DNA of 64,000 bases, taken from NCBI GenBank assembly GCA_976226885.1, contig OZ320316.1, positions 88,660,001 through 88,724,000 of the forward strand. The letters run 5' to 3'. Positions 5,500 through 58,772 of the stretch are shown one piece after another. How positions within the stretch are numbered: the first letter of the stretch is position 1; every line of letters starts with the position of its first letter. The notes beneath the pieces were generated by a model, which saw nothing but the letters and a program-made list of their open reading frames with translations, was not told the origin of the DNA and ran no database searches. The translations under genes were made by a program, and so were the position numbers. This DNA comes from Iphione sp. A-MEVVRFRX5 (taxonomy: Eukaryota).

Positions 5500-6660
5500 A
5501 ATGGTATTACATACATATTCTAATAGACCTTTTAAACATTTCTTGTTCGGGTCTTGGTAATTGTATTACCTTTTTTATTGATATTCTGGTATCATGGCTG
5601 GTTAAAGACTGTTCTTTTGCTACTTGCTATCCAAGCCACTGTAGCCTAATATTCTTTTGTGCAATGAAGTCCCTTTGAACCTCAGCAGTAGAAAATCTTT
5701 TGTATCCAAATACACAGTTCATTATTCGTTTTCTCGCCAAAATAAATTGTCCAAAATAAGAATGCTTGGATTAGTATTAACTGATGTAGTACAGTTGCCC
5801 ACTGATACATTTTATTTACTATTGATCTAGGTATATTCTTATTACCATAAAAGGACTTTACCTAGCATACAATTTCCGCATTGATTTACTTTGATTGGCT
5901 GCCATTGTTAATTCACCATCAAGTACCATTCTAAGTATGTCAGTTTCTGTACCACAGAGATTTCTATGTCACTTAACTTGATCAGATCTCTTAAACCTTC
6001 TTGTGGGAAACCATAGTAAAATTGCATGCTTTGAGTTTTCAATTGATTCATCAAGTTTTACAGTTTTTGGTCCATTTCAGTATATTTGACATGTCCTGGT
6101 TCAACCTTCTTAAAGCTATATCCAATGGTTTTCCAGTGGTTACTAATGGAATGTCATCAACATACACAAATATATCAGAATTCTGAACAGAATTATGCAA
6201 AGAATTAATGAAGGTTAAAAAGAAAAAAAGTCCCAAAATGGAACCTTGGGGAACACCACATTCCACCTCACTGATATCAGATAAAATCCCTTTACACCTT
6301 ACAATTTGCCCCCTCTTTGTTAAATAACTCGTTATCCAATTCATATTATCATTTGAAATGCTGATTTCTTTAATTTTACTTAATAAAATCTCACGATTAA
6401 CAGAATCAAAAGCTTTTTGTAGATCAATAAATGTCCCTATTACTATTTCCGCTTCATTTAGCTTGATGTATGCAATTTGTCAGATCAACTAATTGTCAGT
6501 CCGATGGATAGCGACCTCCTGAACCCATTTTGCTTTTTACTTAAGATATTATGTTTTTCTATGTGACTGTATGTTTTATCATAGACAATGCGGTTTTTGA
6601 ATCTTTGCTATAATGTTCAACAAACCAAGTTCTTTGTGGTAGCTCACCTGTACATAAGAA
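5500..6660 (-). mobile_element. Degraded non-LTR retrotransposon (CR1/L2-type LINE) reverse transcriptase fragment
   Basis: ORF 6051-6344 has WITSYLTKRGQIV, GVPQGSILG and YVDD. Upstream minus-strand reading gives GTFIDLQKAFDSVNREILL. Stops and frameshifts on both sides; boundaries approximate. Confidence 0.8.
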
Positions 6661-32905: not shown

Positions 32906-33017
32906 TAATGGTGACGGCATGATTGAAGGGCGAGTCATTAGTGAACCAACCAACCCTGACCGCTACACCGTATATAAACCCTTGAAATCGCTTCCTCGGC
33001 CTCTCTCTCGTTTTGCT
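32906..33017 (+). repeat. Split direct repeat A1 (promoter-bearing)
   Basis: Identical to 37333-37444; contains TATATAAA at 32971-32978, about 30 nt before a pyrimidine-rich CTCTCTCGTTTT initiator-like stretch. Confidence 0.95.
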
Positions 33018-33075
33018 GCAGACGAAGACGGTCGCACCCAGGGCACCACAGAGAGAGAGCGCGCCTATTGCCATT

Positions 33076-34350
33076 ATGTCGCTGTCACCTGACGAAACTG
33101 CTACCCCTGGCAAGGGAAAAGAAAAGACTACAAAGCTCAAGGTGACCGACCGCCTTGAAAGGCTCGAAAGAGCCATGGACGACATTGCTTTATTGAAAAC
33201 ACATATTCTTTCCCTTTCAGCAACCTCCCAGCAGACACAGGGAGAGCCTGTCACCGGTCAGAGCAACGAAAGTTCGTCAGACGAGAGGCCAGCAGACCCC
33301 ATCCCGGGTACAAGTCAGCAAGGAACCGAGACGGCAGCTACTACCCAGACGAACCAGCCCAATGCAGCGTCGAACCAACCTGTCCAGTTCAACACTTCAG
33401 GCGAACCACGTGGCGAACCTCGACACCGCGTCACAATGGGCACGAGCGTGACAGTGGGCACCAACAACACGTGGCCGTCCTTCCCTCAGCAGACGGGCGT
33501 CCTGATGCAGCCAGCACTTCTCCAGGCCCAGCAATACAAGCACCAGTCAGCGCCAGCAGTCGAGTTCTTCCCTCGTCGTCACCAGGCCGGGCATGCTGTT
33601 CTACCTACGCCTAACGAACTTCGCAGTGGACCGTCAGTCCAACACTATATAGATTCATACCTGGACGCTACGGCTCCGTGGCTCAGCCAAACTAACGAGA
33701 ACCGAGGTAACATAGACCTAAGGGTGCGAAATCTGATCCCGAAACCACACATGTACGTTCAAAAAGACGGTTTATCAACTCCGAAACAGAAAAATGAGTA
33801 TCGGGAAAAGATAACGTACCACGAGTTCGTGCCAGCATATTTTGCAATGCTTAAAGATGAGCACGCATTTGCCAGTCATGAAAAACCATATGTTCTTGAA
33901 CACTTATTCCATGTTACCCAGGACGCCCAGAGGCGCCCATGGAAGAATGTTAGGAGGTGGTCAAATAACATATTTGATATGATAGAAAGAAACGAAATAA
34001 CTTGGGCACACAGTCATGAAATAGCATATGAAAGGCTCATGGTCTCGATGGCGGGCGTATCCCCTGGTGATGTAGTTGAGGTTCCATGTCCTGTGTATAA
34101 TTCTGCTACATGCATCCACAAGTCAGACTATCACCAAGAACAAGAGGTAAAATTCCTCCACGTTTGCATGTATTGCTTCGCACTCAACGGTGCGAAGCAC
34201 GCTCATGCGAACAGTGTGTGTGGGAAAAGAGCAAAAATCAACCTAGCTCCAAAAACGCAAAACACGCAACATGGACAACAAAATACTCGTCCCCATTACC
34301 AGACAAATGCCCCACAGTACACTCAGCAGAAGCAGTCAAAAAACGAGTAG
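33076..34350 (+). CDS. Gag-like ORF1 of YR retrotransposon (424 aa from first ATG)
   Basis: ORF 33013-34350, first ATG at 33076. Q/T/P-rich N-half, helical core (PW..VRRWSN..FD.IE..W) and a Cys/His cluster CPVYNSATCIH...HVCMYC...HAHANSVC, typical of DIRS/Ngaro Gag. Confidence 0.85.
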   Translation: MSLSPDETATPGKGKEKTTKLKVTDRLERLERAMDDIALLKTHILSLSATSQQTQGEPVTGQSNESSSDERPADPIPGTSQQGTETAATTQTNQPNAASNQPVQFNTSGEPRGEPRHRVTMGTSVTVGTNNTWPSFPQQTGVLMQPALLQAQQYKHQSAPAVEFFPRRHQAGHAVLPTPNELRSGPSVQHYIDSYLDATAPWLSQTNENRGNIDLRVRNLIPKPHMYVQKDGLSTPKQKNEYREKITYHEFVPAYFAMLKDEHAFASHEKPYVLEHLFHVTQDAQRRPWKNVRRWSNNIFDMIERNEITWAHSHEIAYERLMVSMAGVSPGDVVEVPCPVYNSATCIHKSDYHQEQEVKFLHVCMYCFALNGAKHAHANSVCGKRAKINLAPKTQNTQHGQQNTRPHYQTNAPQYTQQKQSKNE

Positions 34351-36197
34351 AACCGGTCCTACCAACATGCCAGACAGTTGGGCGGGCCGTAATGCACCCA
34401 CACACAACAGAAATAGATTTTGCACTTGTCCGTGAGATATGCCGGTCAGACGACCGGGATATCACCCAAGCATGTACGTTTCGACAATTAGCTGACCACA
34501 AAGCACGAACATGGCCAAATATAGACCTGGGCGATGTTTCCTCTTCTCTCATTCCCATATACAACAGCGTCCGTGCTGACGGGAGACCCAACTTGTTGGG
34601 CGCACGACTCCCCATTCCTTCCACTACAAATATTACTGCTTGGGCCACATACCTACGTCACGACTACACCGACCCACAACTTATTGACTTGCTTACGTAT
34701 GGGTTCCCATTGGGCTACATGGGCCCTGGGTCTACCTGTTCGAGCGGAAATAACCACCCATCTGCTAAACAGTACCCACAAGCCATTGATACCTATGTAG
34801 AAAAGGAATTAGCCCTGAATGCGATCCATGGCCCTTTTGATAACCCACCGTTTGATCCCTGGTTTCACACATCACCTCTTATGACCCGCCCTAAGAGAGA
34901 CACCGACAAAAGGCGAGTCATTCTAGATATGTCATATCCAGATAGTGAGTCAGTAAATGCATACATAGGCAAGAATATGGTATTAGGGGTAGTTAGAGAT
35001 CACTCGCTTCCTACCATACAGTCGTTACTAACCACCATTAGACAAGTTGGAGGGTCTCCTTACCTGGCAACCATTGACATCGCCCGGGCATACAGAAATT
35101 TCGGGACTTGTCCGCTCGATTGGCCGTTGATGGGGTTCAAATGGAATGGAAAATATTATTTTGACACCGCCATTCCGTTTGGATCCCGTTGCTCGGCCAA
35201 TCACATGCAGCGGATTGCCGATGCTATTGTCCGCATACTCAGCAGAGAAGGGATCACTGCATATATGTACCTGGACGATTTAATATTGGTTGAGCCTTGT
35301 CAGGAGAAAGCACAATCAGCATTTGCACGCGTACAAGACCTACTATCAGAGCTGAACTTGCCAGAGGCAAAAGAAAAGGCCCAGCCCCCTCAAAAACTTG
35401 TAACTTGGTTAGGTATTAACATCGACACATATGCAATGACAGTCTCAATTCCACCCTCGAGGGTCACGGACATTCTGGATGTAGTCACGAAGAGTGAGAA
35501 GTGTAAGAGCATGGTTAAGCACGACTTTCAAAGTCTCTTAGGGAAGGTGCTTCAGATAGCAAGATGTGTTGCCCCTGCACGTCTGTTTGTCAGTAGGCTT
35601 CTTAAGAACTTAAGAGAGGCGAGAGGAAGGTATGTAAAGATCGATGGCGAGGCAAAATTAGACCTGAGATGGTTCATTACGTACTTGAAACAATGGAACG
35701 GAATAGCTATCATTCCCCGAACCCAAGTAGACCGAGAGATAGTCGTAGATGCGTGCCTCTCGGGGATTGGTGGGGCTGATAGCTCCAGGTGGTATGCCGA
35801 GAAAATCCCAGCCTTCTGCCAGGGATTTCATATCACTCAGATCGAAGCTGTTAACCTCCTCATTGCGGTTAAAACATTCGTAGGCGAAAGAGACGCCGGT
35901 AAGCAGATTAAGATCAGGTGCGACAATATGCCCGCAGTAGATATGTTCCGCTCGGGCAGGGGAAGGGACCCTATTCTCCTAAAATGTGCTCGATCTTTGT
36001 GGTTTCACCAGGCATTGTATCATGTCACGATCATATATGAACATACTCCAGGGGAGCACATGACCTTCGCTGATGCTCTTTCTCGCTGGGATGATCACCC
36101 TAAGTTCCAATTTATAGCTGCGGACTTCATCGCAGCAGGTAATTTGCAAAAAATTAATTCTGTAACAGACCCTAATGCCTTGTGGTCTGACTTGTAA
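34110..36197 (+). CDS. Reverse transcriptase / RNase H (ORF2)
   Basis: RT: SPLMTRPK, RRVILDMS, TIDIARAYRN, IPFGSRCSA, YLDD (35268-35279), TWLGINID. RNase H: VDAC, EAVN, CDN, H.PG...ADALSR. Overlaps ORF1 in the -1 frame; no methyltransferase domain after RNase H. Confidence 0.95.
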   Translation: MHPQVRLSPRTRGKIPPRLHVLLRTQRCEARSCEQCVWEKSKNQPSSKNAKHATWTTKYSSPLPDKCPTVHSAEAVKKRVEPVLPTCQTVGRAVMHPHTTEIDFALVREICRSDDRDITQACTFRQLADHKARTWPNIDLGDVSSSLIPIYNSVRADGRPNLLGARLPIPSTTNITAWATYLRHDYTDPQLIDLLTYGFPLGYMGPGSTCSSGNNHPSAKQYPQAIDTYVEKELALNAIHGPFDNPPFDPWFHTSPLMTRPKRDTDKRRVILDMSYPDSESVNAYIGKNMVLGVVRDHSLPTIQSLLTTIRQVGGSPYLATIDIARAYRNFGTCPLDWPLMGFKWNGKYYFDTAIPFGSRCSANHMQRIADAIVRILSREGITAYMYLDDLILVEPCQEKAQSAFARVQDLLSELNLPEAKEKAQPPQKLVTWLGINIDTYAMTVSIPPSRVTDILDVVTKSEKCKSMVKHDFQSLLGKVLQIARCVAPARLFVSRLLKNLREARGRYVKIDGEAKLDLRWFITYLKQWNGIAIIPRTQVDREIVVDACLSGIGGADSSRWYAEKIPAFCQGFHITQIEAVNLLIAVKTFVGERDAGKQIKIRCDNMPAVDMFRSGRGRDPILLKCARSLWFHQALYHVTIIYEHTPGEHMTFADALSRWDDHPKFQFIAADFIAAGNLQKINSVTDPNALWSDL

Positions 36198-36208
36198 TTC
36201 CAGATCCT

Positions 36209-37168
36209 GTGGCGGTGCGGCTGGCAGCGGAGGCAGAACGGCTTGTAGCCAATGCAAGGGCCCCAGGAACTATAGAAAACAGAAGGTCGGCCACTCGTGC
36301 ATACTTGTCTTTCTGCTACCGCTTCCAAGTGACTCCACTACAGCCCACGCCTCTCCAGGCTTGTATGTATATCCGTTACCTCGCCAGTTTCGTCTCAAGT
36401 CCTGCCTCAGTTTCAAACGCTATTTCACATATTCGTGAATTTCTTCGCGACCACGGCATCGAACAAACGGGCTTCACCTCTCGTCAGGCAAAGCACGCGC
36501 TAGATGCCCTGAACCGATCTAAGTGTTATCTTGTTGAACGAAAACGTCCATTAGGGGCTGGCGAGGTAAAACGGCTTATGTACGCCACCCTTCCCCAGGC
36601 ATATGGCCTCATAGTCAGGATGGCATACCTTCTAATGTTCTATGCTGGCCTACGCCAGTCTGAAGTGGCCCCTCGATCGCTACACTCTTTCGACCCTGAT
36701 CGCCACCCGACTAGGGATGATGTTGCTGTTCTCGACGATAAACTGCTACTTCGTCAGAAATGGTCCAAAACCAGGCAAATGTACGATCAGGCCCGCGACA
36801 TTATTTTACCTACCTCTTCCGACCCTATTTTGTGCCCTGTACATACTTACAAGACCCTTGTCGCAGTGTATCCGACCGTACGTAAACGCCAGCCCCTGTT
36901 GTGCTGGAATTCGGACACTGCTCCTATCACGTCTCCATGGCTAGCTAAGAAGTTACATGAATTGGCTTCGCATGCGGGGATTGACTCATCTGCCCTGTCG
37001 TTACATAGTTTTCGTAGGACAGCTGCTACCCTGGCATACGAGAATGGCTGTGATACCTTACAGGTCCAACACTTTGGTTCATGGAAGTCGGAAGCGTATC
37101 AATCTTATGTTAGCACTCGCAACTCCAAGCAGGTCTCGGAGATACTAGTGCGGTCACTCACTAAATAA
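36209..37168 (+). CDS. Tyrosine recombinase (ORF3, lambda-integrase family)
   Basis: Catalytic set intact: R (GLRQSE), K (WSKT), HxxR (HSFRR), W (GSWKS), Y (AYQSY), after a core-binding-like N-terminal region. No ATG at the 5' end; frame opens at 36191. Confidence 0.95.
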   Translation: MAVRLAAEAERLVANARAPGTIENRRSATRAYLSFCYRFQVTPLQPTPLQACMYIRYLASFVSSPASVSNAISHIREFLRDHGIEQTGFTSRQAKHALDALNRSKCYLVERKRPLGAGEVKRLMYATLPQAYGLIVRMAYLLMFYAGLRQSEVAPRSLHSFDPDRHPTRDDVAVLDDKLLLRQKWSKTRQMYDQARDIILPTSSDPILCPVHTYKTLVAVYPTVRKRQPLLCWNSDTAPITSPWLAKKLHELASHAGIDSSALSLHSFRRTAATLAYENGCDTLQVQHFGSWKSEAYQSYVSTRNSKQVSEILVRSLTK

Positions 37169-37177
37169 ACCCCTTTT

Positions 37178-37337
37178 GGCGCATATCTCGATGTATTTTA
37201 TCAATTATACCACTATTGTGTTTTATTATTGTACAAACATCTTAACTTGATATTTTAATATCTTGTGTGTGCAATAAAATTGCCCAAAAATCAGATGTCC
37301 GTTCACCTTATTTATGTAGTTGGTAGTAGAACTAATG
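37178..37337 (+). repeat. Split direct repeat B1
   Basis: Identical to 37498-37657; AT-rich with AATAAA at 37273-37278. Confidence 0.95.
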
Positions 37338-37444
37338 GTGACGGCATGATTGAAGGGCGAGTCATTAGTGAACCAACCAACCCTGACCGCTACACCGTAT
37401 ATAAACCCTTGAAATCGCTTCCTCGGCCTCTCTCTCGTTTTGCT
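37333..37444 (+). repeat. Split direct repeat A2
   Basis: Identical to A1; overlaps B1 by TAATG. Confidence 0.95.
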
Positions 37445-37497
37445 CCCACCCTCCCACCCCCTGCTTGCCTAGTCAAAAAATTGTATTTTATCGTTAA

Positions 37498-37657
37498 GGC
37501 GCATATCTCGATGTATTTTATCAATTATACCACTATTGTGTTTTATTATTGTACAAACATCTTAACTTGATATTTTAATATCTTGTGTGTGCAATAAAAT
37601 TGCCCAAAAATCAGATGTCCGTTCACCTTATTTATGTAGTTGGTAGTAGAACTAATG
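37498..37657 (+). repeat. Split direct repeat B2 (3' terminus)
   Basis: Identical to B1; AATAAA at 37593-37598; ends in TAATG. Confidence 0.95.
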
Positions 37658-46950: not shown

Positions 46951-47563
46951 GGATGATCATTGGTGATAATGGAAGCATCTTTAGAGTGTGAGTAGGAAGA
47001 ACAGGCGCCATTCCACGTAATGTTGGAGAAAAATATTGAATTAAAGATAGAGAAAGAAGTACAATAACAAAGTATGCTCTCAGCTGTTATGCCTGGTTGT
47101 CTTGATATTTCATACCTGGATCTCTCTCCACCTGATTGTACATTCCTGTCCTGTGTTTACTCATCCCTTTGTCCTTTCTAAACCGTTTTATTTACAGTCC
47201 AATGTCCATTGTCAGCACAAATATTACAACCAAATGTCATTCATTTAAATATGATGAGTGAATTTTTACATTTTCTCTAGGGCTTGGTTTCCTTGTAAGT
47301 GTGTCACCATGAGGTGTGTAGGCATATTTGCAGCATGTATTTTAGGAATACATGAATATACATGAGTGTGTGCATATAGGGGTGGGCTGTGTAATGTGTA
47401 ACATGTCAGTGTGGACTGTGTTTTCTAACGTGGCATCTTGGTGTACAGACATGTAAAATGAGTACATGGTTATAACGCACTTCACAACGTGTAGGCAGTG
47501 GTTATGAGGTTAACAAAGAATTAAGGAATACACACTGATAAACATGGCAACACCCCTACATAT

Positions 47564-47861
47564 TGTAACGTCCGCTCCGCAAGTAAGACATAACTCCAGT
47601 TAAGGTAATGAGGTTTATTCAGTAAGAGCAATATGAGCATCAACAGTGAGCACCAAAGGTAATCTGAACTGCCCGAGGGGCCAACTCCCTTATATACCCA
47701 TCCCCAGTCTCTTCAGCATCCGGGTACCGGACCCCTCCTACTCCGCAGCACCCCTACGAGTGCCGCACGGGGGCGTGCCGCTGCACCCTACCAGTCCAAT
47801 CCACCTGTGCCGCAGCATCCCTTGTATGCCACGGTGCCGCAGCCACGCAGTGGCTCCAACA
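47564..47861 (-). repeat. 3' LTR
   Basis: Direct repeat of 57552-57849; minus strand has TATATAA and AATAAA. Confidence 0.97.
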
Positions 47862-47874
47862 TTGCCCTCCCCTT
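47862..47874 (-). other. Polypurine tract
   Basis: Minus strand AAGGGGAGGGCAA directly abutting the 3' LTR. Confidence 0.85.
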
Positions 47875-48042
47875 AGAGGTTGCTTGTCCTCAAGCAACTC
47901 GCTTCCCAACCGTAACTGTAACTGTAACTGTTCAACACACTCAGGTCCTGGGGCGGTCTGACGTCCGAGTCCGGTAACACATTCCTCGTAATGTCACGAA
48001 TCCAGGGGCAGTCCAATCGTCAGCTATACCCGTCTCCCAGAA

Positions 48043-51000
48043 TCACAGGTGAACCGTCCACGACTCTCGGATATGTACTTCCACGTTGCCCCCGGCGGTG
48101 GGCTCTTCCCGCCACGTGGACAGGAGTCGCACTGGGCGGCCCCGCGTCAGTACCGTCCCATAGTTGGTGTACCATGTAGCCAACTCGCTGCCTGGGACCG
48201 GCACCCCAAGCCGCCGGAAGGTGATGGTTTGCCGGAGGATGACTTTCACTTGCCCGGCGGTGAGCACCTGCACATCCAAAGCTGAGGTGTTGGAAATGAC
48301 CATCCACCCGGGCGGTAGGGTGGATTCTGGCGACACCAACCGTGATGCCGCCCAGACGTACACGGCGGCCGGAACCTCTTCCTCTGCTCCTGATGAGCCT
48401 GACACGTCCTGCAGGGATGCTCCCGTCCCAGGGGTTGGCGGGCCAGAGGGGGGGTCTGGTCGCGTCCCCCACCTTCCTGCCCCAGGGAGCGCCGGTGGCC
48501 CCAGCGCAAGGGAGGGGCCCGGGGGAGGGCGCGCTCCGCGGCCAGGACCCGGTGTCGGGCCGCGCGGGAACCCTCCGGGCGGTGCTGCTGCTGTTAGATC
48601 CTCCCAAGGCCTGATGGGGGCTATTCCGCGGGGGCTCGCCCTTCCCTCGCCTCCTGGAGTTCCCTGGGTGGATGTGGAAGGGGGCCCCCGTCCGCGGCCC
48701 CTTGCGGTCTCCCCAGCCGTCGAGGGCACGACGGCCCTGTCTTGCTTCTTCAGGGGTCCTTCCGGCCGAGTTATCCCCGGTGGCGGAGGCGCGCCCTGAC
48801 TCCGAGTCAGCCCCACGGACCAGCTCCCTCTCCCCCGCGAGGGCGGCAGCACCAGCTGGAGATGGAGTGGAGGGGCCCGACGTACCCCCTCCGTCGGCCC
48901 TCTAGGCCCTCTAGGTCGCTCTGGGCTCGCCGTCTCCTCGGTGGCGCCTTTTTGTTGACTTCCGGCCGGTACTTTCTCGGGGGTAGGGCTTATGGCCGGA
49001 CTGGTCGCCGGGCTGGTGACTGGCCCGGCCCCCTCTGCGGTGACCGTCTCGCCCTCTGTCGGCCCCCTGGGCTCGTGAGGCCGCCCTGGGCTTGCCGTCA
49101 CCTCTTCGCCTTTCTGCTCCGAGGTGGTTGGGACGTTCGGCTGGCTCTCAGCTGGTGCCTCTTCAATGGTCGGGCTCGCGGCTGGACTGGCCGTGGGGCC
49201 GGGAGCTGACCCGGCCCCCTTGGCGGTAGTAGGTTTGAATGTCACGCCGCCAACCGGGCCCTCCTCCGTCTCCGCCTCCCTCTGCGTAACGGAAGTCGGG
49301 ACCTCTTCCTGCTGTGAACTTCCCGACGATCTTGCCGTAATTCCCACCGCATCTGCGTTGCTGGTTCCCACGGGCACCCCTGGCGCCGTGGGTATGGTTG
49401 GCTGGGAACCCCGGGAATCAGTGTCCTGCACTGGCGAGCTTTGCGGGCACGGAGCAGTGCCGTCGGGGGGGGGGGGCTCCGACTCCTCTTCGGAGGATTC
49501 TTCCTCAAAGAGGGTCGCTAGCTCTTGTTCCTCCTCACCGTCGTTCTCAGGGGCATGCCCCTCGCTCGTGGGCCCGTGTGTCTCGGTCGGGCCTGTGGTC
49601 AAGGGCTCCCCGGCCGGGTCAGCCTCCGCGGCCCCCCCCAATCTCGGCTTCTTGGCAGGCGACGGTGTGATGGACCCGGGCGGTGTCACAAGATCCACCA
49701 CGTCTCCCTCCTCCGGCCGCTCCCAACCTACGCCTAGGCGTTCGTCCAGTCAACGTTCGTCCTCTTCCCACAAGGGCGCCCCGAACGGGGTCCCTGGCCT
49801 GGGCTCCCCGCGACGGTCGGGGGCACCCCTACCCATACCAGGGAGGCGACATGGGGGTGACAGCCCGACAGGCCAGGCAGTGGGGGAGGCCCGGAAGGTT
49901 GCTCGAACTCCCACCTGGCGAGTCCCCGCCGCGCCAGAGAGTCCGAACGGTCCCTCGCCCCTCGGCTCCATGGTCGTGACCCGGGGCAGGGTCACCCGCA
50001 GTTGCGGGGGGGGCTCATCAGCCGACGTCTGACTAGCTGAGTCTAGGAACAGCCTACGTCCCTTATAGTGCGACGCCCCGGTAGGCAGGTCAATGTTGTC
50101 GGGCATGGCCACCTCTGGCCGTGGTGGGGGGGCGTTCCGTCTTTCTTTTTCTTGGGTAGGGGGGCGGTGCGGTCTCGCATACGTGCGGGTGGCCAAACGC
50201 TGGTCCAGGCGGGGTGGGGGTCCCGACCCTCCACTGCCCTGGCTATCTCCCGTCGCGGCTTCCGTGGAACCAGTGTATTGGCCTGGGGCTTCCTGGGGCG
50301 AGGGCTCGGCCGTGGAAGGGGTGCCACCGTCACCCGCCCCATCGGGGGTTCCTGTGCCACGATCCGACGTCCGGCCGGAGACGGGGGACCCCCCTCCCTC
50401 GCTGTCCGGTGGAAGGTCGGGCATGGTCGATGACGGAGACCCGGGAGCGCGATGGTCAGGCCCCTCCTCGCGGGGGATGCTGGCCGCCCATTCCTTCACC
50501 AAGCCCCGTGCCTCATCCGTGGAAGAGTCCCGACCCGAGCTGCTGCTAGGTGGGGGACCCGGTGGGGTATGCGGCCCTCGGTGCGGGGCGTCTACTGAGC
50601 GGCCCACCCCTCGTCTCTCCAGAGCAGTAGTAGTGCCCTCGGCGTAGGGGGAGCGTGGCGGTACTTCCTCATCCGGTTCCGGCGCTCCTGTAGTCGCGGG
50701 CGGCGGGGGGGGTCCGGCGCAACTGCTCCCACTCCGGTCGGTGTCCCCGGTCATGGTCTCCTCCCCGCCCAAGGGGCCCGAAGACACCGTCCGAGATACC
50801 ACCCCCGGCGCCCGGGCGGACGGCAGGGCACTCTCTTCTCACGAGCCGGGAGGGGGGTCCCTCCGTTGTCGGGTGGGCGCTCCCCGTCGCATCGTACCTT
50901 CCGGGTTCCCCCAATTGCTCGAGGTCCCGACGGGGTTGACGCGCCAGTAGACGTCGACAGCTGTGCTGGCGGTGGCCCCGCCCGGTCCTCCAGCTGCTTG

Positions 51001-51980
51001 GCCGACGAGCCTGCCCCGGGCCCTTGCTGCCGATGGGTTGCAGCTCCTGAGGTGACCACTGAGGGTCCCTCCGCTCGGTTGTCGCCACCTTCTTCTGGCG
51101 TTGTGGAGCGCCCTCTCTTTTTACTACTTCGCTTTGAGGCCCCTCTGTGCGTCGGGGGTCGACCCGCCGCTCTACGTACTTCTTTCTCCCGGCTCTTCTT
51201 CTCTCGGGCCCGAGCTCGCTGAAGCATCTCTACCTTGTCGGCCAGGCAGAGGCGCGGTTCCCCATAGGTGGGGTTGAGGCCCCAGAACCGTAGGTACTGG
51301 AGGTTCACTGTCAGGGCCCAATCGTTGGGTTCGTGGACCCCATTCAGGTGCCACTTCCAGTCGGTGCGCTGGTGGAAGGCTTGTTGCTCACACTCAGGGT
51401 CAGGGCACAACCATCCCAACCCCTCGGGCGCGTGCACATCCTTCAGGTGGCGGCGCAGGTTGGACGGCTGTGCGAACGTGGATGCACAGCGGGAGCAGCG
51501 GTGGCGGCGCTCCTCAGGGGCACCCGGTTCTTCCTCACCAGAGGACTCCGAGTCGTCGCTCTCAGCGTCGGGTGGGGGGGCGTCCTCTGGTGCGTTGGCC
51601 ATGTCGTCGATGCGGCGATGCGGCACCGGTGGGGCGCAGTTCACAGGTGGCGCACAGCCGCTCGGTACCGGGACGGCGAGGGCCGCAGCGGCACTGCGGG
51701 TCTGGACCGGCTTCGGCGGGGTAGGGTCAGCCTCTGCGGCACTGCGAGTCTCCTCACGTGGATCGCTGACTGCGGCGTTGCGGTGGTCCTCCTGCTGTTG
51801 GTCGCCACCGGGTGGTGCCGCTGCGGTACCTTGGGGCCCTGGCCGCGGCGGGTTGTCCGCTAGACCGCCGCAGGGCGGCAGAGAGGGAGTCGACCTCACT
51901 GGGGCGTGCGAGTCTGCGGCCACTACGTCTGAGGGGGATGGTGCGGCTACAGTCCACCCCCGCGCGGCACGCCAGTCGAG
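48043..51980 (-). pseudogene. Accessory ORF3 of the Gypsy element: 2x C2H2 zinc finger, NLS-like patch, low-complexity linker, C-terminal globular domain (interrupted)
   Basis: Track ORFs 50751-52082, 49750-50802 and 48043-49701. The last two share a frame and are split only by TGA at 49750-49752; one frameshift lies between the first two. ZF1 CSRCASTFAQPSNLRRHLKDVH and ZF2 CPDPECEQQAFHQRTDWKWHLNGVH at 51333-51497; internal ATG at 51602. Confidence 0.75.
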
Positions 51981-54900
51981 CTGCGGAAGAAAGGTACCCA
52001 TGAGAGTAACGGTTCCAGGTAGTTCCCTCCGCAGCGGCGACAGGTTTACCACACATTTCATCGAAAAACAAGGGTGCATCACGATCTTCGCCGCTCACCC
52101 AGCGCGGCTTTCTCCCGTTACCCCGATTATCACCCATGTGTGCCGCTATCAACGGTAGGTTCCTCACCTCGTGCTGCCGCGGCGAATCCCTCGTGGAAGT
52201 AGGTCGTCGAGCGGCAGCGGCTTCTCCTCTGTCGCCGCAGCCTCGGGTCGATATTTCCCGGTCGGGGGAATTAGGTGCGTTCCGTCGGCGTTCGACACGT
52301 GCTGCGTTGATCACGACGCTGTGGATCGTGTGGTGTCGCTCGGGTGCAACTTCCTGCGGCTCCCCTGGCGCCGTCTGGAGACGAACGGTCGAAGCGTGCA
52401 GTTCTGCAGGTGACGGGGCGGGGACCAGCGCTCTGCCATTTATAAGCTGAGGTGCGGCTGCGGCGCCCCCTAACGGTGTGGCATAACCGTGCGGCCCCGC
52501 GGCTTCCTCATGGGCCCACTGTGTCTTGTCTTGTGCTGCTGCGGCCTCCTGGACGCCGCACGTAACCTGGGGGTCGAGATGGGCGATCTTCAGGCGATCG
52601 GCATGAACTACTCTATGCCGATGTCCACGGCTGACTCGGTACACTACCTCGGACAACGCCTTCTCCACGGTCCAAGGTCCCTCCCACCAACTCTGTAACT
52701 TCTGGGAGATTCCCTTCTTACGGGCCGGGGTGAATAGCCAGACCCGGTCGCCCTCGGCGTACCGTTGGTGCCGCACCCCTCGGTTGTACCAGTCCTTCTG
52801 CTGCGCTGCCACGCGACTCAGCTTCTCCGCTACCTTCTCATGCGCCCGGCGGACCTCTTCTGCTATCCGGCTCGCATATTCCCCACGATCCACCAGGGGC
52901 CGGGCCACCATTGCGCAGCTCCACTGGCAACGTCACCTCTCGGTGCAACAACGTCTGGTTCGGTGATTCCCCCGTGGTGTTGTGGGGGGTGGCCCGGTAG
53001 GCGGCCATCACGAACGGCAGGGCTTGGTCCCAGTCCTTCCGGCGCTCCTCGGCTAGCGTGCCCAGCATGTTCCCCAATGTGCGATTAAATCCCTCGACTA
53101 CCCCATCACTCTGGGGGTGGTAGGGGGTGGTTCAGGACTTCTCTATCCCAAGGAGTCGTAGTACTTCAACGAACAGCGCTGCCTCGAAGTTACGGCCCTG
53201 GTCCGAATGGAGTACCCGTGGGGGGCCGAAACGGCAGACCACCTCCCTAATGATGATGTCTGCTGTGGCCGCCGCGGTGGCCTCTTCAAGAGGGAACGCT
53301 TCCGTCCATTTTGAGAAGTGGTCGGCCACTACCAGTATGTACCTGTTTCCCCTCTCCGTCACAGGAAGCGGCCCCAAGATGTCTGCCGCCAGCACTTCCC
53401 ACGGCTCCGACACGGGGCGTCCCTGAAGGTGGGCCCGGTGGCGCCTCCCCGGCCCCTTCCTTTGTTGGCATGCCTGACAACACTGGGACCAGTGTGCAAT
53501 GTCGCGCGACATCCCGTGCCAAAACCAGCGCCGGCGCAGCGCCGCTCCGGTTTTCTCTGGACTGAGGTGGCCACCCACCGGGCCCGCATGGGTCTCCTGC
53601 CAGAGGCTCTTCCGTATGGTCCGGGGGACATAGGTCTGAGGGAGCCTCTGCCTGTCCTCCTGTTCCCAAAGGCGCACCAGTGCTCCCGATCGGAGCTCGA
53701 GTCTCGGGCCTTCCGCTCTGAGTTGTCTCTCTTCCCAGGTCAATCCAGCCCGCAGTCCAGGGAGGGGCCCCCTTCCTCCAGCGCTTGGATGAGCTCGCCT
53801 GTTGCCGGTTCCGCCCTCTGCATCTGGCACACATCCGGACCACCCTCCACTCCAGCGATGCCTACCGCCGCCGCACTCTCGGACCCCAGGTCTCGCCGGC
53901 CGCACTGCTTGCATTCTTGCCGTGATAGTCCATCTGCGTTACCATGGCGTTTTCCTGGCCGATGCGTGATCCGGAGGTCATGACAGAAGACCTCCTCCAA
54001 CCACCTGGCCAGTTGTCCTTGTGGTTCGTGGAAGTTGCACAACCAGCGCAAGGAATCGTGGTCGGTGCGGATGTCTATGGCCCGGCCCCCCACATAGCAT
54101 CTAAACTTCCGGAGGGCGAACACCACCGCCAAGAGTTCCTTCCTCGTAACGCAGTAGTTTCGCTCGGGGCGGGTCAGTGTGCGGCTGGCATAGGCTAACA
54201 CCCGCTCACGCCCTTCCTGTACTTGAGACAACACCGCACCGATGCCGGTGTCGGAAGCATCGGTGTCCAGGAGCAATTGCCCCAAGGGTGTCGGGTAACC
54301 CAGGATGGGGGTAGTGGACAGCCGGGCTTTCAGCTGTTCGAAGGCTTCTTGACAGGCCGGGGACCACTCGAACTCCCGCTCCGCTCCAGCCAAGGCATGC
54401 AGGAGTGCCGCTAGGGTAGCAAACCCTTCCACAAAGCTGCGGTAGTATGAACCGAGTCCTAGAAAGCTTCGAAGTTCCGCTGCACACCGGGGGCGGGGCC
54501 ATCCTGATACGGCCCTGATCTTCTCTGGGTCGACCCCTACCCCTTCCGCCGAGACCCGATGGCCCAGGTATGCCACCTCTCGCTGGAATAGTTGACACTT
54601 GGACGCTTTGACGCGGAGTCCGGCCTCAATCAGCCTCTGGAACACCGTGCCGAGTCGGGTGCACATCTCCTCCACTGAGCGGCCCAGGACGATCACATCG
54701 TCGAGGTACACTAAACACTCGGTGCCCACGAAGCCCCGCAGTACGGACTCCATAAGCCGCTCAAAGGTGGAGGGCGCGTTGCAGAGGCCGAACGGCATCA
54801 CCCGGAACTGGTAAAGGCCGTTCGGGGTGCACACCGCCGTCTTTTCTGCGTCCGCCGGCTCCATCTCGACCTGCCAGTAACCGCTGGCCAGGTCGATCGC

Positions 54901-56241
54901 CGAAAAATACTGGCTACCCTGCAGAGCATCGAGGGTGTTGTCTATCCGGGGGAGGGGGAAAGCGTCCTTCTTGGTGATGGCGTTGAGTTTGCGATAGTCG
55001 ATGCAGAACCGTAGCCCCCCGTCTTTCTTTTGTACGAGCACCAACGGAGATGCCCATGGGCTTGTGGAGGGCTCCAGCACCCCCTTCTGCACCATCTTGT
55101 CTACCTCCGCGCGAACTGCCTCTCTCTTGTGAGGGGGGAGGCGCCTTGCTCGTTGTCGAATGGGTGGGTGACCCTGGGTGTCGATGCGATGTTGGACCTC
55201 CGGGGTACGGCCGAGAGGTCCACTGGCTGTCTGGAAGACCTCGCGATGGTGCTGTAGCATGGCCGCTATCTGCTGCCGCTCCGGGTCGGTGGTCTCCACC
55301 GGTAATTGTCCTAGCAAGTACTCTACAGCTTGCTCTTGCTCTGTCTCCACCTGTTCCTGGGGAGCTCCGGGTGGTCCAAGCACCGCGGCGACCTGACGGA
55401 GCTCGGCTAACCGGGTTCCCTCGAAGACTCGTGTCGCCTGGGAGCCGGGGTTCCACACTGGAACCCACACCCTCCCCTCCTGAGGTCGTACCAGCGCGCG
55501 AGCCACTCGTAACCCTGAGCGTGACTCGAACCTGGCGTCAGGCTCTGCCAACCCTTCCAAAGAGTCGACCCCTCCTTGACACGCCTTCGCCTGAACCCAG
55601 CCTATTCCTCCCGCAGGAATCTCTTGACTGCCGCTGGCTCGCAGGGTGGCTACCCATTCACGGTTGCCGGGCCAAACAGTGACCGTGGCCTTCCTCGTAT
55701 CCACTGTTGCCGCCCACCGATCCAGCCAGTCCAAGCCAAGTAGACCCGGTATCTCCATCTCTACCACAATGGCCACCACCTGTAGGGTGACCCCCGCAAA
55801 CCGAACTTCGCAATCCACCAGCCCCAATACTTGTAGGGCGCTGCCATCTACTCCAAAGACTCGCGCCCCCGCCGGGTCCAACGACACTCCCTGTAGTTCT
55901 CGGTAGGTCCGCGCTGAGAGGAGGGGAGCGGAGGCTCCTGTGTCCACCAGCCAATCCACCACCTGTCCGCCGACCTCTCCCTCTAGCAATACTCCCCGGC
56001 ACCGCGTCCTCCTCCTTCCCTGCAGTACCCTCCCTGGCTCCCCCTCGACGGCAGCGACCATCGCCTCCAAGGGGGGTCCCAGGCCGGGTGGTACGGAATC
56101 GGACGCCGCCCGCCCTACTGAGCCGGGGCGGGCGGCTTCTCGTTTTCCGGCTGCGTCGGAGCAACGTCGGCGGTGCTCTCGGCTGCCTTCCGCACCGGGC
56201 AGTCCCGCTTGAAGTGCCCGGGCTCCTTGCAGTAAAAGCAT
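51754..56241 (-). pseudogene. pol: Gypsy pol (protease, RT, RNase H, integrase) with 2 frameshifts and 1 nonsense codon
   Basis: PR DTGAS (about 55930-55944); RT YLDD (54697-54708); RH DASD/TDH/NADGLSR; IN HHCC, DILGP, SDQG, VEGFNRTL and C-terminal WEGPW. Frameshift about 53740-53775, in-frame TGA 53132-53134 in KS*TTPYHPQSDG, frameshift about 52915. Confidence 0.95.
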
Positions 56242-57534
56242 CCTTCGTTGTTCGCGCGCTTCCCGCCTCGCCTAACGGGGGAAGCAGTTGTTGCGGGCTG
56301 TTCCAGTAGTTTGGACAGGAGCTGCTCAATGCGCTCCAATCCGGTCGTTGTCTTGGTGTCGTGGCTGGTCGCAGCCACCTCTTGAGATTCGGCCTGTGCC
56401 GCATGGACACGCGTCGCCCCAGCCCCCAGGCTGCGCTCCTTCTCGGCGCGGTGGTACGACTCGGCCAAGAGCGCCTCCGAGATGGCTGCCTGAAAGGACC
56501 GGGCCTTAGCTTGCACGACCCATCTCCGGCAACGTTCTTCGCGGAGGGCCGAGACGAAGGCATCCTTGCACATTCGATCCAACCAGGAGCCCTCTGCCTC
56601 TGGGTAGGCCTGCCGCACCAATCTTTCAACCTCCTCGGCCAGTTTCTGGACGTCCTCGTCCTTCTTCTGGCGATGCTGTTTCAACTCCTGTTCATAATAC
56701 TGGGCTCGATCCTCCGACTGGAACCTCTGTCGCAGGGTCTCGACAATAGTCGAGAACGCTCCCTCAGCGGACACATCCACGTTGGCCGAGCGGAGGGCGG
56801 ATTGTGCCGAGCCCCTGAGACACACGCTGAGTTGCAGCGCCTGTTCCGCTTCGTCCCATCGGTTGGCCCGGGCCACCAGTGAGAAGTGATGCAAATATTC
56901 CGCGAGGGGAACTCCTCCACTGAAGGATTCCGGTTTGACATGGAACCGGCGTGTAGGGGGTACCGGGGGGGCAGGCCGGAGAGCGGACTGGATCTCATCC
57001 ATCAGTCCCCGCATCAGCTGGACGGCATTTCCCTGCCCGTCCCCGGCAGGGCTCGAGTTGTGCGGGGAAGGGCCAGCTGGTGGGGCTGCTGGCGGCGGGG
57101 AGACTGGGGTAGCGGGGTCGTTGGGGTTTGCCGTTCCATCCGCCTGTCCTCCTACCCCGGTGGGAGCCCCGGGCGTGGTGTCGTCACTGCCCCCCCCCGC
57201 GGGGTGAGCCGGCCCCGCTGGGGATAGAAGAATCCTCACTGCTGCTGCAGCTCGATGAGTGGTCTTCGTCCAACCGTGCTGTGCCGCTGCGGCGCAACGG
57301 GGTGCTGCGGCACGGTGGGGTGCTGCGGCGCAGTGGGGTGCTGCGGCACGGTGGGGTGCCGCGGCCCCGCGGCGCGTGATGCGCCCCGAGCTGCACCTCC
57401 TCGTCCTCAGTGCTGGAGTCTTCCCTCGTGGGGGACCACTCGTGGGGAATGGTACGTCCCACGTGTCCCCCCCGGGGGGCAGGCCGTGTCCCCCTTCCTC
57501 GCGGTCGCGGTACGCCCGTGGGTGATTCCTCCAT
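56115..57534 (-). pseudogene. gag: Gypsy gag with one frameshift in a G9 run
   Basis: KPESFSG..LAEYLHHF...N.W capsid-like region and CCHC knuckle CFYCKEPGHFKRDC. The likely N-terminus MEESPT (ATG 57534-57532) joins the main frame if the C9 run at 57190-57198 were C8. Confidence 0.85.
57286..57365. repeat. 18-bp tandem repeat x4.4 in the gag 5' region
   Basis: Units gctgcggc(g/a)c(a/g)(a/g)(c/t)ggggt at 57286, 57304, 57322 and 57340; encodes TP(P/L)(C/R)RS repeats. Confidence 0.9.
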
Positions 57535-57550
57535 CCCACCGCTGCCACCA
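57533..57550 (-). other. Primer binding site complementary to tRNA-Leu (AAG/TAG type) 3' end
   Basis: Plus strand ATCCCACCGCTGCCACCA (18 nt) matches the conserved metazoan tRNA-Leu(AAG/TAG) 3' terminus including CCA; 1 nt from the 5' LTR. Confidence 0.85.
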
Positions 57551-57551
57551 A

Positions 57552-57849
57552 TGTAACGTCTGCTCCGCAAGTAAGACATAACTCCAGTTAAGGTAATGAG
57601 GTTTATTCAGTAAGAGCAATATGAGCATCAACAGTGAGCACCAAAGGTAATCTGAACTGCCCGAGGGGCCAACTCCCTTATATACCCATCCCCAGTCTCT
57701 TCAGCATCCGGGTACCGGACCCCTCCTACTCCGCAGCACCCCTACGAGTGCCGCACGGGGGCGTGCCGCTGCACCCTACCAGTCCAATCCACCTGTGCCG
57801 CAGCACCCCTTGTATGCCGCGGTGCCACAGCCACGCAGTGGCTCCAACA
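57552..57849 (-). repeat. 5' LTR
   Basis: Direct repeat of 47564-47861; TATATAA (57684-57678) and AATAAA (57607-57602) on the minus strand. Confidence 0.97.
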
Positions 57850-58579
57850 ATATTTACATGAAAACCCGTCCTAAACCAGGACTTCTGTTTCTCAGGACTA
57901 CAGACATCATTATATGTGTGGAAATATACATGGTATCTGTGTGCCTTGTTCAGTTTGAGTTCTAATTTAGAAAGGAAAGAGACACTGAACGAAGTGGCAT
58001 CTTCTTATTTGTAAAAGAAAGAGATGCAGAGGGAAATAGTAATTATAAAAGAAACTAAAGTCCTTTTTACTATACTTCAATAGATTCTTTTATTTTTATT
58101 TTAAAGATGACTTACCCAGAGTATAAAATAATGTGTGCTTCACATGTACTATTAAAGGTAACCAGAGAAATACTTTACATAATATCGGAGAATATAGTGA
58201 TGCTCTGGAGGGGAACCTTTCAGTTTACAGGGTTTTACTATCAATCACAAATCAATATATGGTGAGATTTGAAATGACTGATGAAGAATTTATGTTTCAC
58301 TTGGTCCAAGATTATTTAGACATGGAGATTAAAGTGAAGTGAAGATTCTGAAGCCTGAGCAGTATCTATGTTTCCAGTGACAGACTACAAAATTAGAATA
58401 AGTTGGTAGGTATTTAGAGCTACAATGTTAAATGAGATGCAATATGAATACAGAGGTTACTCTGAAACTGAATACTCAAAAGCCAAATTTTCCAAAATCC
58501 GAACACAAATAACTGGTAGGAATTGTTTTTCTCTGTTAAAATACTCATATAACCGAATCTTCAATCCAAAATACGAATA

Positions 58580-58772
58580 AATTTTGGCTGACTGACTGGT
58601 TTTTAATGATTTTTGGATGAATTTGGCTGTTTTTGCCGAATTTGGCTGGTTTCTGCCTAAATTTTGCTGATTTTGGACAAATTTGACTGAGTTTTGCCAA
58701 TTTTTGGATGAATTTGGCCAAGTTTCGCCACTTTCCAGATGAATTGGCCTAAATTTTGCCGATCTTTAGCTA
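58580..58772. repeat. Degenerate short-period (about 10-11/21 bp) repeat array
   Basis: Recurring AATTTGGC / TTTTGCC / TTTTGGATG units. Confidence 0.6.

Follow-up and report, generated by a model that had tools for sequence, protein, structure and literature searches.

What does the DNA between pol and the polypurine tract of a Gypsy element encode, and could its product act on the element itself? The question is raised by an element on the minus strand of the window (the whole 64,000-nt stretch analysed here), in which about 3.9 kb of coding sequence lies downstream of pol, with one frame change, one in-frame stop and no env features.

The element and its accessory coding region

The element (47564-57849) is complete in structure but dead. 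It shows the marks of Ty3/Gypsy elements, namely paired LTRs, a target-site duplication (ATAT, at 47560-47563 and 57850-57853), a primer-binding site, a polypurine tract, a gag with a zinc knuckle and a pol in PR-RT-RH-IN order, and its RT-RH is up to 67% identical to Gypsy-type pol proteins. The 12 nearest relatives bear no informative name that would place it in a clade such as Mag, CsRn1 or MolGy. The LTRs differ at 4 of 298 positions, by transitions only. Its gag changes frame near a G run at ~57190, while pol changes frame near 53740 and 52900 and has a stop in the integrase core at 53134. Pol continues for 275 aa beyond the integrase C-terminal domain. A Pfam search of the integrase C-terminal ORF and of pieces A to C of the accessory region turned up no chromo family, Rfam gave no match over 47400-58000, and no tRNA genes were found in the 64-kb window. 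The parts of the element are as follows.

57552..57849, minus strand: 5' LTR, 298 nt, with TG...CA ends
57534..57551, minus strand: primer-binding site adjoining the 5' LTR, presumably tRNA-Leu-like
57281..57365, minus strand: 18-nt tandem repeat at the leader/gag start
56115..57534, minus strand: gag, with zinc knuckle PF00098 and a capsid-like PF03732 match below cut-off
51754..56271, minus strand: pol, in the order PR-RT-RH-IN
51981..52167, minus strand: predicted GT-AG intron, 187 nt, phase 0 in both the Pol-tail and the finger frame
50751..51980, minus strand: piece A of the accessory region, in a frame open from 52094
51600..51602, minus strand: ATG 51602, the first ATG in any frame 3' of the acceptor, with G at -3 and +4
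49750..50838, minus strand: piece B, 362 codons, disorder-type, terminating at the in-frame stop
48043..49749, minus strand: piece C, 568 codons in the frame of B, stop codon 48045-48043
47862..47874, minus strand: polypurine tract
47564..47861, minus strand: 3' LTR, partner of the 5' LTR

The 18-nt repeat is the reverse complement of a motif present three times in U3.

The open frames stand out from their surroundings. From 52094 to 50841 piece A contains no stop, where the other sense frames have 13 and 11, and only 2 of 1000 dinucleotide shuffles match its openness in any of six frames. Pieces B and C together have 1 stop in 931 codons (20 and 22 in the other sense frames), which none of 1000 shuffles matches; they are low in complexity, and 57% of their residues are P, S, T, G or E. 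The preliminary description had supposed that one frameshift and one or more stops interrupt the gene, and there is indeed a single frame change, which lies somewhere in 50841-50753, and a single in-frame stop (49752-49750). It had also set the start at ATG 51602. The ~1,185 codons from there to the end of the region stand, but the coding signal begins at 51980, ~126 codons further 5'. Counted from 51980, the asymmetry of frame A is reached by 0 of 5000 shuffles; openness from ATG 51602 alone is weaker, with 52 of 1000 shuffles doing as well. Piece A has in-frame ATGs at 52079, 52061, 52001 and 51602. Synonymous codon usage does not pick out the accessory frame. Two antisense ORFs (49079-50032 and 51268-52158) have no Pfam match and were set aside as shadows.

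The finger protein and its relatives

The acidic patch, two C2H2 fingers, basic run, disorder and terminal domain of the preliminary description all lie on the sense (minus) strand of this region, the disorder-type stretch being ~900 aa long.

51528..51569, minus strand: acidic patch upstream of finger 1, a feature that the relative P0275 has too
51432..51497, minus strand: C2H2 finger 1, recognition helix Q(-1) S(2) N(3) R(6)
51333..51407, minus strand: C2H2 finger 2, with atypical spacing and W at helix positions 4 and 6
51108..51206, minus strand: NLS-like basic run by motif reading, on a predicted long helix rich in Arg/Lys
49642..49701, minus strand: SIM-like VVDLV beside acidic residues, then NLS-like PAKKPR, both motif readings
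48046..48399, minus strand: C-terminal alpha+beta domain, modelled as hairpin-helix-hairpin

Finger 1 has the C-x2-4-C...H-x3-5-H spacing and the beta-beta-alpha form, and finger 2 shows them more weakly. Finger 1 scores 17.4 bits against PF00096, under the 25.2 cut-off; its helix aligns with that of the designed DNA-binding finger of 1MEY, the helix residues are of DNA-binding type, and the protein may bind DNA sequence-specifically. Finger 2 has no Pfam score of its own and a model pLDDT of 42-52, and the interfinger linker, APEGLGWL, is not of the TGEKP type. The eight Cys/His ligands of the pair are all kept in P0175 and P0275. No KRAB, SCAN, BTB or ZAD effector domain was found by Pfam. 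VVDLV was read against the SIM consensus, and 0.19 matches are expected by chance in piece C.

The end domain was modelled from a single sequence (pLDDT 70, pTM 0.60). A fold search gave a top Z of 9.3 (2y3u, rmsd 3.5, 98 aligned), a next of 8.5 and many of 6-8, scattered among unrelated alpha+beta folds, with a best Foldseek TM of ~0.5. No sequence relative of this domain appeared among 370 candidates of 312-994 residues at E <= 0.01 or among the proteins and loci compared, and there was no usable Atlas match. For the fingers, the fold search returned helix matches only, plus one C2H2 finger at Z 4.0, and the Atlas feature search returned generic C2H2 clusters only. A phmmer search of 1.84 billion proteins with the finger region gave 2113 matches; the best 150 of these all have at least three matched stretches, as in multi-finger proteins, and in 1 of these 150 the best stretch extends beyond residue 81. 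A two-sequence finger profile run on 6455 candidates (lengths 239-2000) recovered P0175 itself only.

Related finger pairs are found fused to Pol in other elements. P0275 is a single 2636-aa ORF with PR-RT-RH-IN intact, followed beyond Pol by a Met, an acidic patch, the finger pair (1707-1770), a basic patch and an 866-aa tail; P0276 matches this frame as far as the acidic patch, and P0272 is the same tail, beginning at the Met before its acidic patch. P0175 has a related pair in frame with Pol and falls in the RT clade of the window, whose 13 members also include the P0182/P0275 family (support 0.994, SH-aLRT 97). A distant element, L025, has the layout of the window's element in an unbroken Pol-finger frame. 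In leave-one-out profile searches of 8,038 sequences, the window plus P0275 recovers P0175 at 31.8 bits and the window plus P0175 recovers P0275 at 27.0 bits, with the canonical finger pair of L011 lower (14.2 and 16.9 bits); the P0175 plus P0275 profile gives the window just 13.2 bits (E 0.04). When P0275 is searched by phmmer with the finger region of the window, not one domain is returned, and outside the fingers, end domain included, we found no similarity to any relative compared. A similarity between the tails of P0182 and P0175, seen by eye, was dropped, as BLASTP gives no alignment. In the closest relatives, P0169, P0280 and P0282, pol stops directly behind the integrase C-terminal domain. 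A Met lies at most 36 residues before finger 1 in all four long-tail elements (joint chance 0.027, the threshold having been set after the data were seen).

A second form is a stand-alone gene. In L011-L014, L017 and L018 pol is followed by a C2H2 ORF of its own, in a frame that varies relative to pol, and with a Met 3 residues before finger 1. These ORF3s of the L011-L018 lineage are 155-215 aa long and form clusters of 51, 11 and 36 members. Their dN/dS is 0.18-0.20 in all five informative pairs among L012, L013, L017 and L018, and three pairs give Fisher p values of 1e-6, 0.0015 and 0.0025. The L012-type ORF3 has one finger only, yet is under selection. The small globular domain of L011-L018 has no match in the window. 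A single clade of the three finger-bearing lineages is rejected (p-AU 4e-5, for a group partly chosen after seeing the tree), so the fingers may have been gained separately for different jobs.

These data bear on whether the region is an element gene at all. It might be a host exon or junk captured by one copy, its long frames owed to high GC, and the generic multi-finger matches of the large protein search, together with a disordered arm and end domain that match nothing in sequence searches, would fit such an origin. However, the region is depleted in stops, its GC of 0.68-0.70 and A-over-T skew resemble gag (0.64) and not the host flanks (0.41), relatives carry related pairs at the same place, and breaks are as dense here (2 in 3.9 kb) as in gag-pol (4 in 5.0 kb). 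We consider capture very unlikely. A degenerate env or membrane-fusion gene would explain the position between pol and the polypurine tract as well as the predicted spliced expression, but the product has no hydrophobic segment (highest 19-residue hydropathy 1.11, hydropathy being the measure used for TM and signal-peptide assessment) and has C2H2 fingers and basic runs instead. Pieces A, B and C contain no env or fusion-glycoprotein Pfam family at E up to 1, the R-x-K/R-R motif occurs once in A and not in B or C, and B and C have just 3 Cys in 930 residues. On sequence grounds an env identity is almost certainly wrong, as the preliminary description had held. That description had proposed a continuous ORF in other copies and dN/dS as checks, and had named a host exon present in this copy only as the outcome against it; the frame is unbroken in P0275 and L025, the stand-alone ORF3 of the sister lineage (that of L012, L013, L017 and L018) is under purifying selection, and the region is shared by relatives and has the composition of the element, not the host. 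With its anatomy, its open frames, its fused and stand-alone relatives and the selection seen in one sister lineage, the region is very probably a genuine accessory gene that belongs to the lineage.

A predicted intron and the gene structure

The start of the coding signal at 51980 coincides exactly with the best-scoring splice acceptor of the element (rank 1 of 777 AG), which pairs with a donor of rank 2 among 513 GT, as scored with splice matrices. Removal of this predicted 187-nt intron, the segment of lowest GC in the internal region, would connect the Pol tail with the finger frame. When the Pol tail is recoded synonymously 2000 times, a phase-compatible splice pair arises 3 times and the GC dip likewise 3 times; 2000 recodings of frame A give a comparable acceptor 54 times. 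When the internal region is shuffled 300 times, an acceptor this strong occurs somewhere in 78 cases and a donor-acceptor pair in 13. In L011, L012, L018 and L025 no comparable acceptor precedes the fingers (best ranks 7, 86, 34 and 22). Unspliced RNA would yield an ordinary Pol ending at 51754, spliced RNA a Pol-finger polyprotein of ~2,600 aa, and RNA entering at acceptor 51981 would meet ATG 51602 as its first start.

An intron may be dispensable if the intact family has a continuous Pol-finger frame and this copy an extra frame-change lesion somewhere within 52094-51757, or if translation starts at ATG 52001, 52061 or 52079. P0275 and L025 show such a continuous fusion, the window copy has four other frame changes, these in-frame ATGs exist, and the 5' part of the element has no good donor (best score -0.1). 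This structure would leave the top acceptor, second-best donor, matching phase and GC minimum as a coincidence (3 of 2000), and the Pol frame is open across the segment, with a basic R-K-P-x-W run that resembles, by eye, the natural pol ends of relatives. We regard it as rather unlikely, though a serious contender to the predicted intron.

The third gene of the preliminary description stands as a non-env coding region of the element lineage. Its account of a gene from ATG 51602 is nevertheless incomplete, since the fingers of P0275 and P0175, in the window's own clade, are in the Pol frame and the predicted intron would give the same fusion. Whether the region counts as a third gene or as an extension of Pol depends on lineage and splicing. 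Elsewhere in it, the top donor (50897) and the fourth-ranked acceptor (49282) form a second candidate intron with matching phases (44 of 2000 recodings), which is only a minor possibility because the stretch it spans, including both breaks, is itself stop-poor.

Possible functions and known systems

Host C2H2 proteins are silencers of LTR elements. We hypothesize that the accessory protein regulates the element's own DNA, a reading that we hold at slightly less than an even chance. A nuclear C2H2 protein of the element lineage would act on the DNA that encodes it, with the two fingers as anchor and the basic runs permitting nuclear entry, and its acidic, Pro/Ser/Thr-rich disordered arm and end domain would recruit or block host chromatin factors. 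LTR transcription would be raised, or protected from silencing. Splicing, nuclear location, DNA binding, the target and the direction of the effect are all steps that we infer, and no binding site for the protein was identified in the LTR. Two C2H2 fingers read only ~6 bp; given this reach, the atypical finger 2 and the selected one-finger L012-type ORF3, binding to protein or RNA fits as well.

A finger module on or bound to integrase might instead steer insertion to DNA motifs or chromatin, as the chromodomain of chromoviruses does. The in-frame integrase fusions of P0275, P0276, P0175 and L025 point this way, as do the same fusion that the window's predicted intron would produce, the Macro and CCCH modules appended at the same place in sister pol proteins, and the precedent of chromodomains in the available text of PMC3350952. 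Against such a tether, ORF3 is separate and variable in frame in the L011-L018 lineage, the tail is ~1,300 aa, and target duplications are ordinary, 4 nt and AT-rich (ATAT in the window; at L012 and L018, which alone among five loci have clean ends, ATAC and CTAT). The compact tethers known from other elements are far smaller than ~1,300 aa. We think tethering unlikely, if credible. It is also conceivable, though we judge it improbable, that the protein is made from spliced RNA and binds unspliced genomic RNA to aid export or packaging, as a CERV- or Rev-like factor. Position and predicted spliced expression resemble those of CERV (available text of PMC10309623), an element with an intron must export unspliced RNA, one-finger ORF3s are under selection, and an Arg/Lys-rich helix follows the fingers; but the helix of finger 1 is of DNA type, and the predicted end domain is antiparallel alpha+beta, unlike the Rossmann-type G domain that the same text gives for CERV. 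We can also imagine that several invertebrate Gypsy lineages encode their own C2H2 chromatin factor, a counterpart of host zinc-finger repressors; here the intron would toggle Pol between plain and factor-bearing forms, so that the factor travels in the particle and acts on, or selects the site of, the new copy. This wider proposal is speculative, and we would sooner expect it to fail than to hold.

The literature searched, which lay outside subscription journals, supplements, Repbase, Dfam and GyDB, contained no C2H2 accessory gene in a Gypsy element, and term searches for 'zinc' or 'zinc finger' gave no occurrence in four invertebrate LTR surveys, supplements aside (PMC13524379, PMC8220671, PMC6238403, PMC8556966). 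The finger genes of this element and of several related ones suggest a so far undescribed route by which elements control their own activity or insertion. LTR elements that encode a C2H2 protein themselves, in three lineages or more and in one of them under purifying selection, add a class of Gypsy accessory gene, for which the ORF3 of L011-L018 (155-215 aa) offers a small, intact test case. If tethering is true, the fusion would represent a naturally occurring integrase that reads sequence; if LTR regulation is true, the protein would count as a transactivator or an anti-silencing factor from elsewhere than Retroviridae. Gene models of invertebrate genomes that look like 'orphan' two-finger genes may also be retrotransposon ORFs.

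Nuclear transactivators encoded by 3' accessory genes are familiar from Retroviridae (Tas/Bel1, Tax and Tat). The accessory gene here shares the 3' position and, by prediction, nuclear location and possible action on its own LTR, whereas those proteins belong to members of Retroviridae. Chromoviruses carry a chromodomain on a Gypsy integrase, so that in both cases a chromatin or DNA reader, here a predicted one, sits behind integrase; the present element has no chromodomain, and its module is ~1,300 aa and stands alone in one lineage (available text of PMC3350952). Ginger1 transposases and Burro elements have OTU, Ulp1 and PHD modules behind a Gypsy-type integrase, and accessory ORFs that may be separate or lie within the polyprotein, but the available texts describe no C2H2 pair, and Ginger is a DNA transposon (PMC2836005, PMC6431247). 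The ORF3s of bdelloid LTR retrotransposons are likewise family-specific, non-env third ORFs of a kind repeatedly gained in invertebrate LTR elements; they encode enzymes or membrane proteins (DEDDy, GDSL, TM), and neither 'zinc finger' nor 'C2H2' occurs in the main text as available (PMC5408684). Plant aORFs such as gene23 of Grande also lie in the interval that separates pol from the 3' LTR, with nuclear localisation and a proposed regulatory role, but the nuclear ones are antisense, and 'zinc' does not occur in the available main text (PMC7264820).

CERV of Cer1, a Gypsy/Ty3 element of C. elegans, has H, M (cysteine loop) and Rossmann-type G domains and exports genomic RNA, and its mRNA joins gag-frame exons (available text of PMC10309623). 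It too is a non-env ORF placed behind pol and ahead of the 3' LTR, nuclear with an NLS and expressed from spliced RNA that borrows an upstream frame, the last two being predictions in the present case. Our protein differs in its C2H2 fingers, long disordered arm, alpha+beta end domain and predicted join to the Pol tail, and its end domain places antiparallel hairpins around a helix (single-sequence model, pLDDT 70) rather than forming a Rossmann-type G domain. Taken together, CERV, the bdelloid ORF3s and the plant aORFs, as far as these texts describe them, provide precedents for non-env 3' genes in Gypsy elements.

The accessory region of a decayed Gypsy element

A full-length LTR retrotransposon occupies 47564-57849 of the window on the minus strand, with a GC content of 0.61-0.70 against 0.41 in the surrounding host DNA. 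Its gag has a zinc knuckle and its pol follows the Gypsy-type order PR-RT-RH-IN. The element is a member of Ty3/Gypsy, and its named relatives in an RT-RH search come from arachnids, a nematode, amphioxus and fish. This copy is dead: gag carries one frame change, and pol two frame changes and one stop. Behind pol lies an accessory region of about 3.9 kb, made up of three consecutive open stretches (pieces A, B and C).

Landmarks of the element and its accessory region
LTRs: 298 nt each, minus strand; 4 positions differ between the pair
Target duplication: ATAT on both sides of the LTRs; PBS and PPT both in place
Piece A: open 52094-50751, sense (minus) strand; with B and C, between the pol stop at 51754 and the PPT
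Piece B: 50838-49750, sense (minus) strand; shares its frame with C
Piece C: 49749-48043, sense (minus) strand; one stop separates it from B

Pieces B and C have one stop in 931 codons, a depletion matched by none of 1000 shuffles; that of piece A was equalled by 2 of 1000. The acidic patch, two C2H2 fingers, basic run, low-complexity arm and end domain were all found where the preliminary description had placed them, and its claim that the region is not env is borne out, as neither a hydrophobic segment nor an env family turned up. Finger 1 is an ordinary C2H2 finger with a helix of the DNA type; finger 2 is atypical, and its structure model is of low confidence. A single-sequence model predicts a compact alpha+beta unit (pLDDT 70) for the end domain, in agreement with the globular domain proposed there. 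Structure searches with it gave generic fold matches only, and sequence searches of protein databases, relatives and loci found no relative. The region has two breaks in 3.9 kb, equal in rate to the four in 5.0 kb of gag-pol, which is what decay of this copy, or assembly error, would produce.

The leader holds a tandem repeat (57281-57365) that is the reverse complement of a motif occurring three times in U3 (47775-47843; also 57763-57831). Their duplex energy is -115.7; shuffles gave -84.4 (sd 6.5), and the best among 89 other windows reached -101.6. Against 2.35 expected, the motif matches 20 times in the window, the host part of which is far lower in GC, and 6 further matches fall within 51617-51829, in Ala-rich codons. 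Such complementarity could possibly mean that genomic RNA pairs 5'-3', or that binding sites are repeated. Elsewhere, the window contains a DIRS-type element (32906-37657) whose direct repeats are split and whose three ORFs, all open, are gag-like, RT (PF00078) and tyrosine recombinase (PF00589); a non-LTR RT-like fragment seen by eye (6051-6479); and a minisatellite with a 20-21-nt unit (58610-58734).

A predicted intron and two possible products

The gene had been proposed to begin at ATG 51602. This is the first start behind the best-scoring acceptor, but coding signal begins 126 codons earlier, at about 51980, where codon asymmetry shifts from the frame of the Pol tail (the residues behind the integrase C-terminal domain) to frame A; none of 5000 shuffles reached the signal in that interval. 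Scored with splice-site matrices, the top acceptor of 777 on the sense strand has its end at 51981, and the second-ranked of 513 donors starts at 52167. Both are in phase 0, and no stretch of the internal region is lower in GC than the 187 nt that they enclose. These signals are not accounted for by the amino acids of the Pol tail (3 of 2000 recodings reproduce them), and frame-A amino acids account for the acceptor in 54 of 2000. Anywhere in a shuffled element, an acceptor of such score arose in 78 of 300 cases and a donor-acceptor pair in 13 of 300. We consider it fairly probable that the predicted sites bound a real intron.

Once spliced, the RNA would encode a Pol-finger product of roughly 1,288 + 1,311 residues, close in size to the related pol protein P0275. 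A stand-alone protein is likely made besides this fusion, given the position of ATG 51602 and the Met found shortly before finger 1 in all finger-bearing relatives. For the BARE LTR element, spliced and unspliced RNA have been shown to be able to serve different ends (PMC3735527). No acceptor comparable to 51981 was found in the Gypsy-type loci L011, L012, L018 and L025. The element's second-best acceptor, 57218, directly precedes the frame change in gag and has no good donor upstream.

Finger-bearing relatives within and beyond the RT clade

The RT-RH search gave 120 relatives (684-2000 aa), of which 116 were placed in a tree and 4 dropped for short coverage; 12 form one RT clade with the window element (support 0.994; SH-aLRT 97). 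Among the 120, P0175 is the sole protein whose integrase is followed by a tandem C2H2 pattern, the other 119 ending earlier. It is without the integrase core, and its fingers are in frame with the integrase C-terminus. Cluster look-up for 10 of the 12 clade relatives supplied P0275, a single predicted ORF of 2636 aa that runs from a complete pol through a Met, an acidic patch, both fingers and a basic patch into a tail of 866 aa. The whole fusion is visible in one of nine members of its cluster, all known as predictions only; P0276 keeps P0275's frame as far as the acidic patch, and P0272 begins at the Met before it. Since pol of the closest relatives (P0169, P0280, P0282) stops directly behind integrase, the fusion is not universal.

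The finger pairs of the window, P0175 and P0275 have all eight ligands in common, as well as G-[WY]-x-C-P opening finger 2. In leave-one-out profiles the third member was clear in two tests (31.8 and 27.0 bits versus 14-17 for the canonical pair) and weak in the third (window, 13.2 bits, E 0.04). A host exon captured in one copy only, the alternative named at the outset, is contradicted by these related pairs at the same place, and by sequence comparison the accessory region belongs to the element lineage. Separately, P0192, P0219 and P0247 have Macro-domain and CCCH-finger matches behind integrase, in the C-terminal 200-260 aa, all under Pfam cut-offs (best E 6e-5 and 3e-5).

Scanning genome contigs turned up 79 loci of the Gypsy type, located in assemblies labelled bacterial or archaeal and most likely eukaryotic contigs binned with them. 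Integrase was placed in 52, and 8 of these have a C2H2 pattern behind it, including L054, set aside as non-canonical. In L025 the finger pair lies at residue 2004 of a single 3079-aa pol ORF, which ends in a tail of 1,022 aa. One assembly contributed L011-L014, L017 and L018, elements bounded by LTRs in which a separate ORF3 (155-215 aa; broken in L014) encodes either one finger or two, together with a conserved domain of 95 aa; they are 6 of the 19 loci with both LTRs located, the other 13 being without such an ORF. ORF3 dN/dS is 0.18-0.20 in all five informative pairs among L012, L013, L017 and L018 (L017/L018 are identical, and four pairs with L011 are saturated and uninformative). ORF3 protein clusters have 51, 11 and 36 members, with no named protein among the 40, 11 and 36 looked at.

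A single clade of the three finger-bearing lineages is rejected (p-AU 4e-5; 56 of 171 rows used), and the L011 type and L025 show no homology to the window region beyond generic C2H2 features. Taken together, the sequences indicate that a C2H2 accessory coding region occurs in at least three Gypsy lineages, which may reflect repeated gain or an old origin with losses. The preliminary observation is confirmed; its interpretation is supported in part, as to a non-env region of the element lineage, and its one-copy scope is widened.

The ~95-aa domain lies behind the finger(s) (L011:6983-7240, L012:6788-7090 and matching parts of the other four) and has no Pfam match and no PDB sequence match. 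At L012:6524-6626, ORF3 is in frame with the pol stop with no further stop between, which would allow read-through; L013, L017 and L018 have ORF3 in a different frame. By eye, TM-like hydrophobic stretches are visible in the N-terminal third of the L025 gag ORF (165-2066). L033, L051 and L068 are LTR-bounded, with 1.6-3.6 kb from integrase to the 3' LTR and no C2H2 match. SIM-like motifs adjoin acidic residues in three of eight scanned stretches (window 49684-49701, L011 ORF3 C-terminus, L025 tail), each taken singly within chance.

Candidate function and known systems

Transcription and chromatin factors are built in this way, with fingers, NLS-like runs and a long acidic, Pro/Ser/Thr-rich arm, and selection on the stand-alone C2H2 form shows that a protein of this kind can function separately from integrase. 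On these grounds we tentatively prefer a model in which the accessory protein would be a factor acting on the element's own DNA, at somewhat under even odds. An integration tether seems less likely, and an RNA factor like that of CERV less likely still. For the L012 lineage, the single finger weakens plain sequence-specific DNA binding.

Full-text literature searches and term counts in four invertebrate LTR surveys brought up no C2H2 accessory gene in Gypsy; repeat databases, subscription journals or supplements may note one. By the features tested, the region is neither env nor a chromodomain nor CERV. In its workings it would resemble non-env accessory genes already described: CERV (PMC10309623), the ORF3s of bdelloids (PMC5408684), plant aORFs (PMC7264820), chromodomains (PMC3350952), the extra domains of Ginger and Burro (PMC2836005, PMC6431247) and, more generally, accessory domains (PMC6338049).
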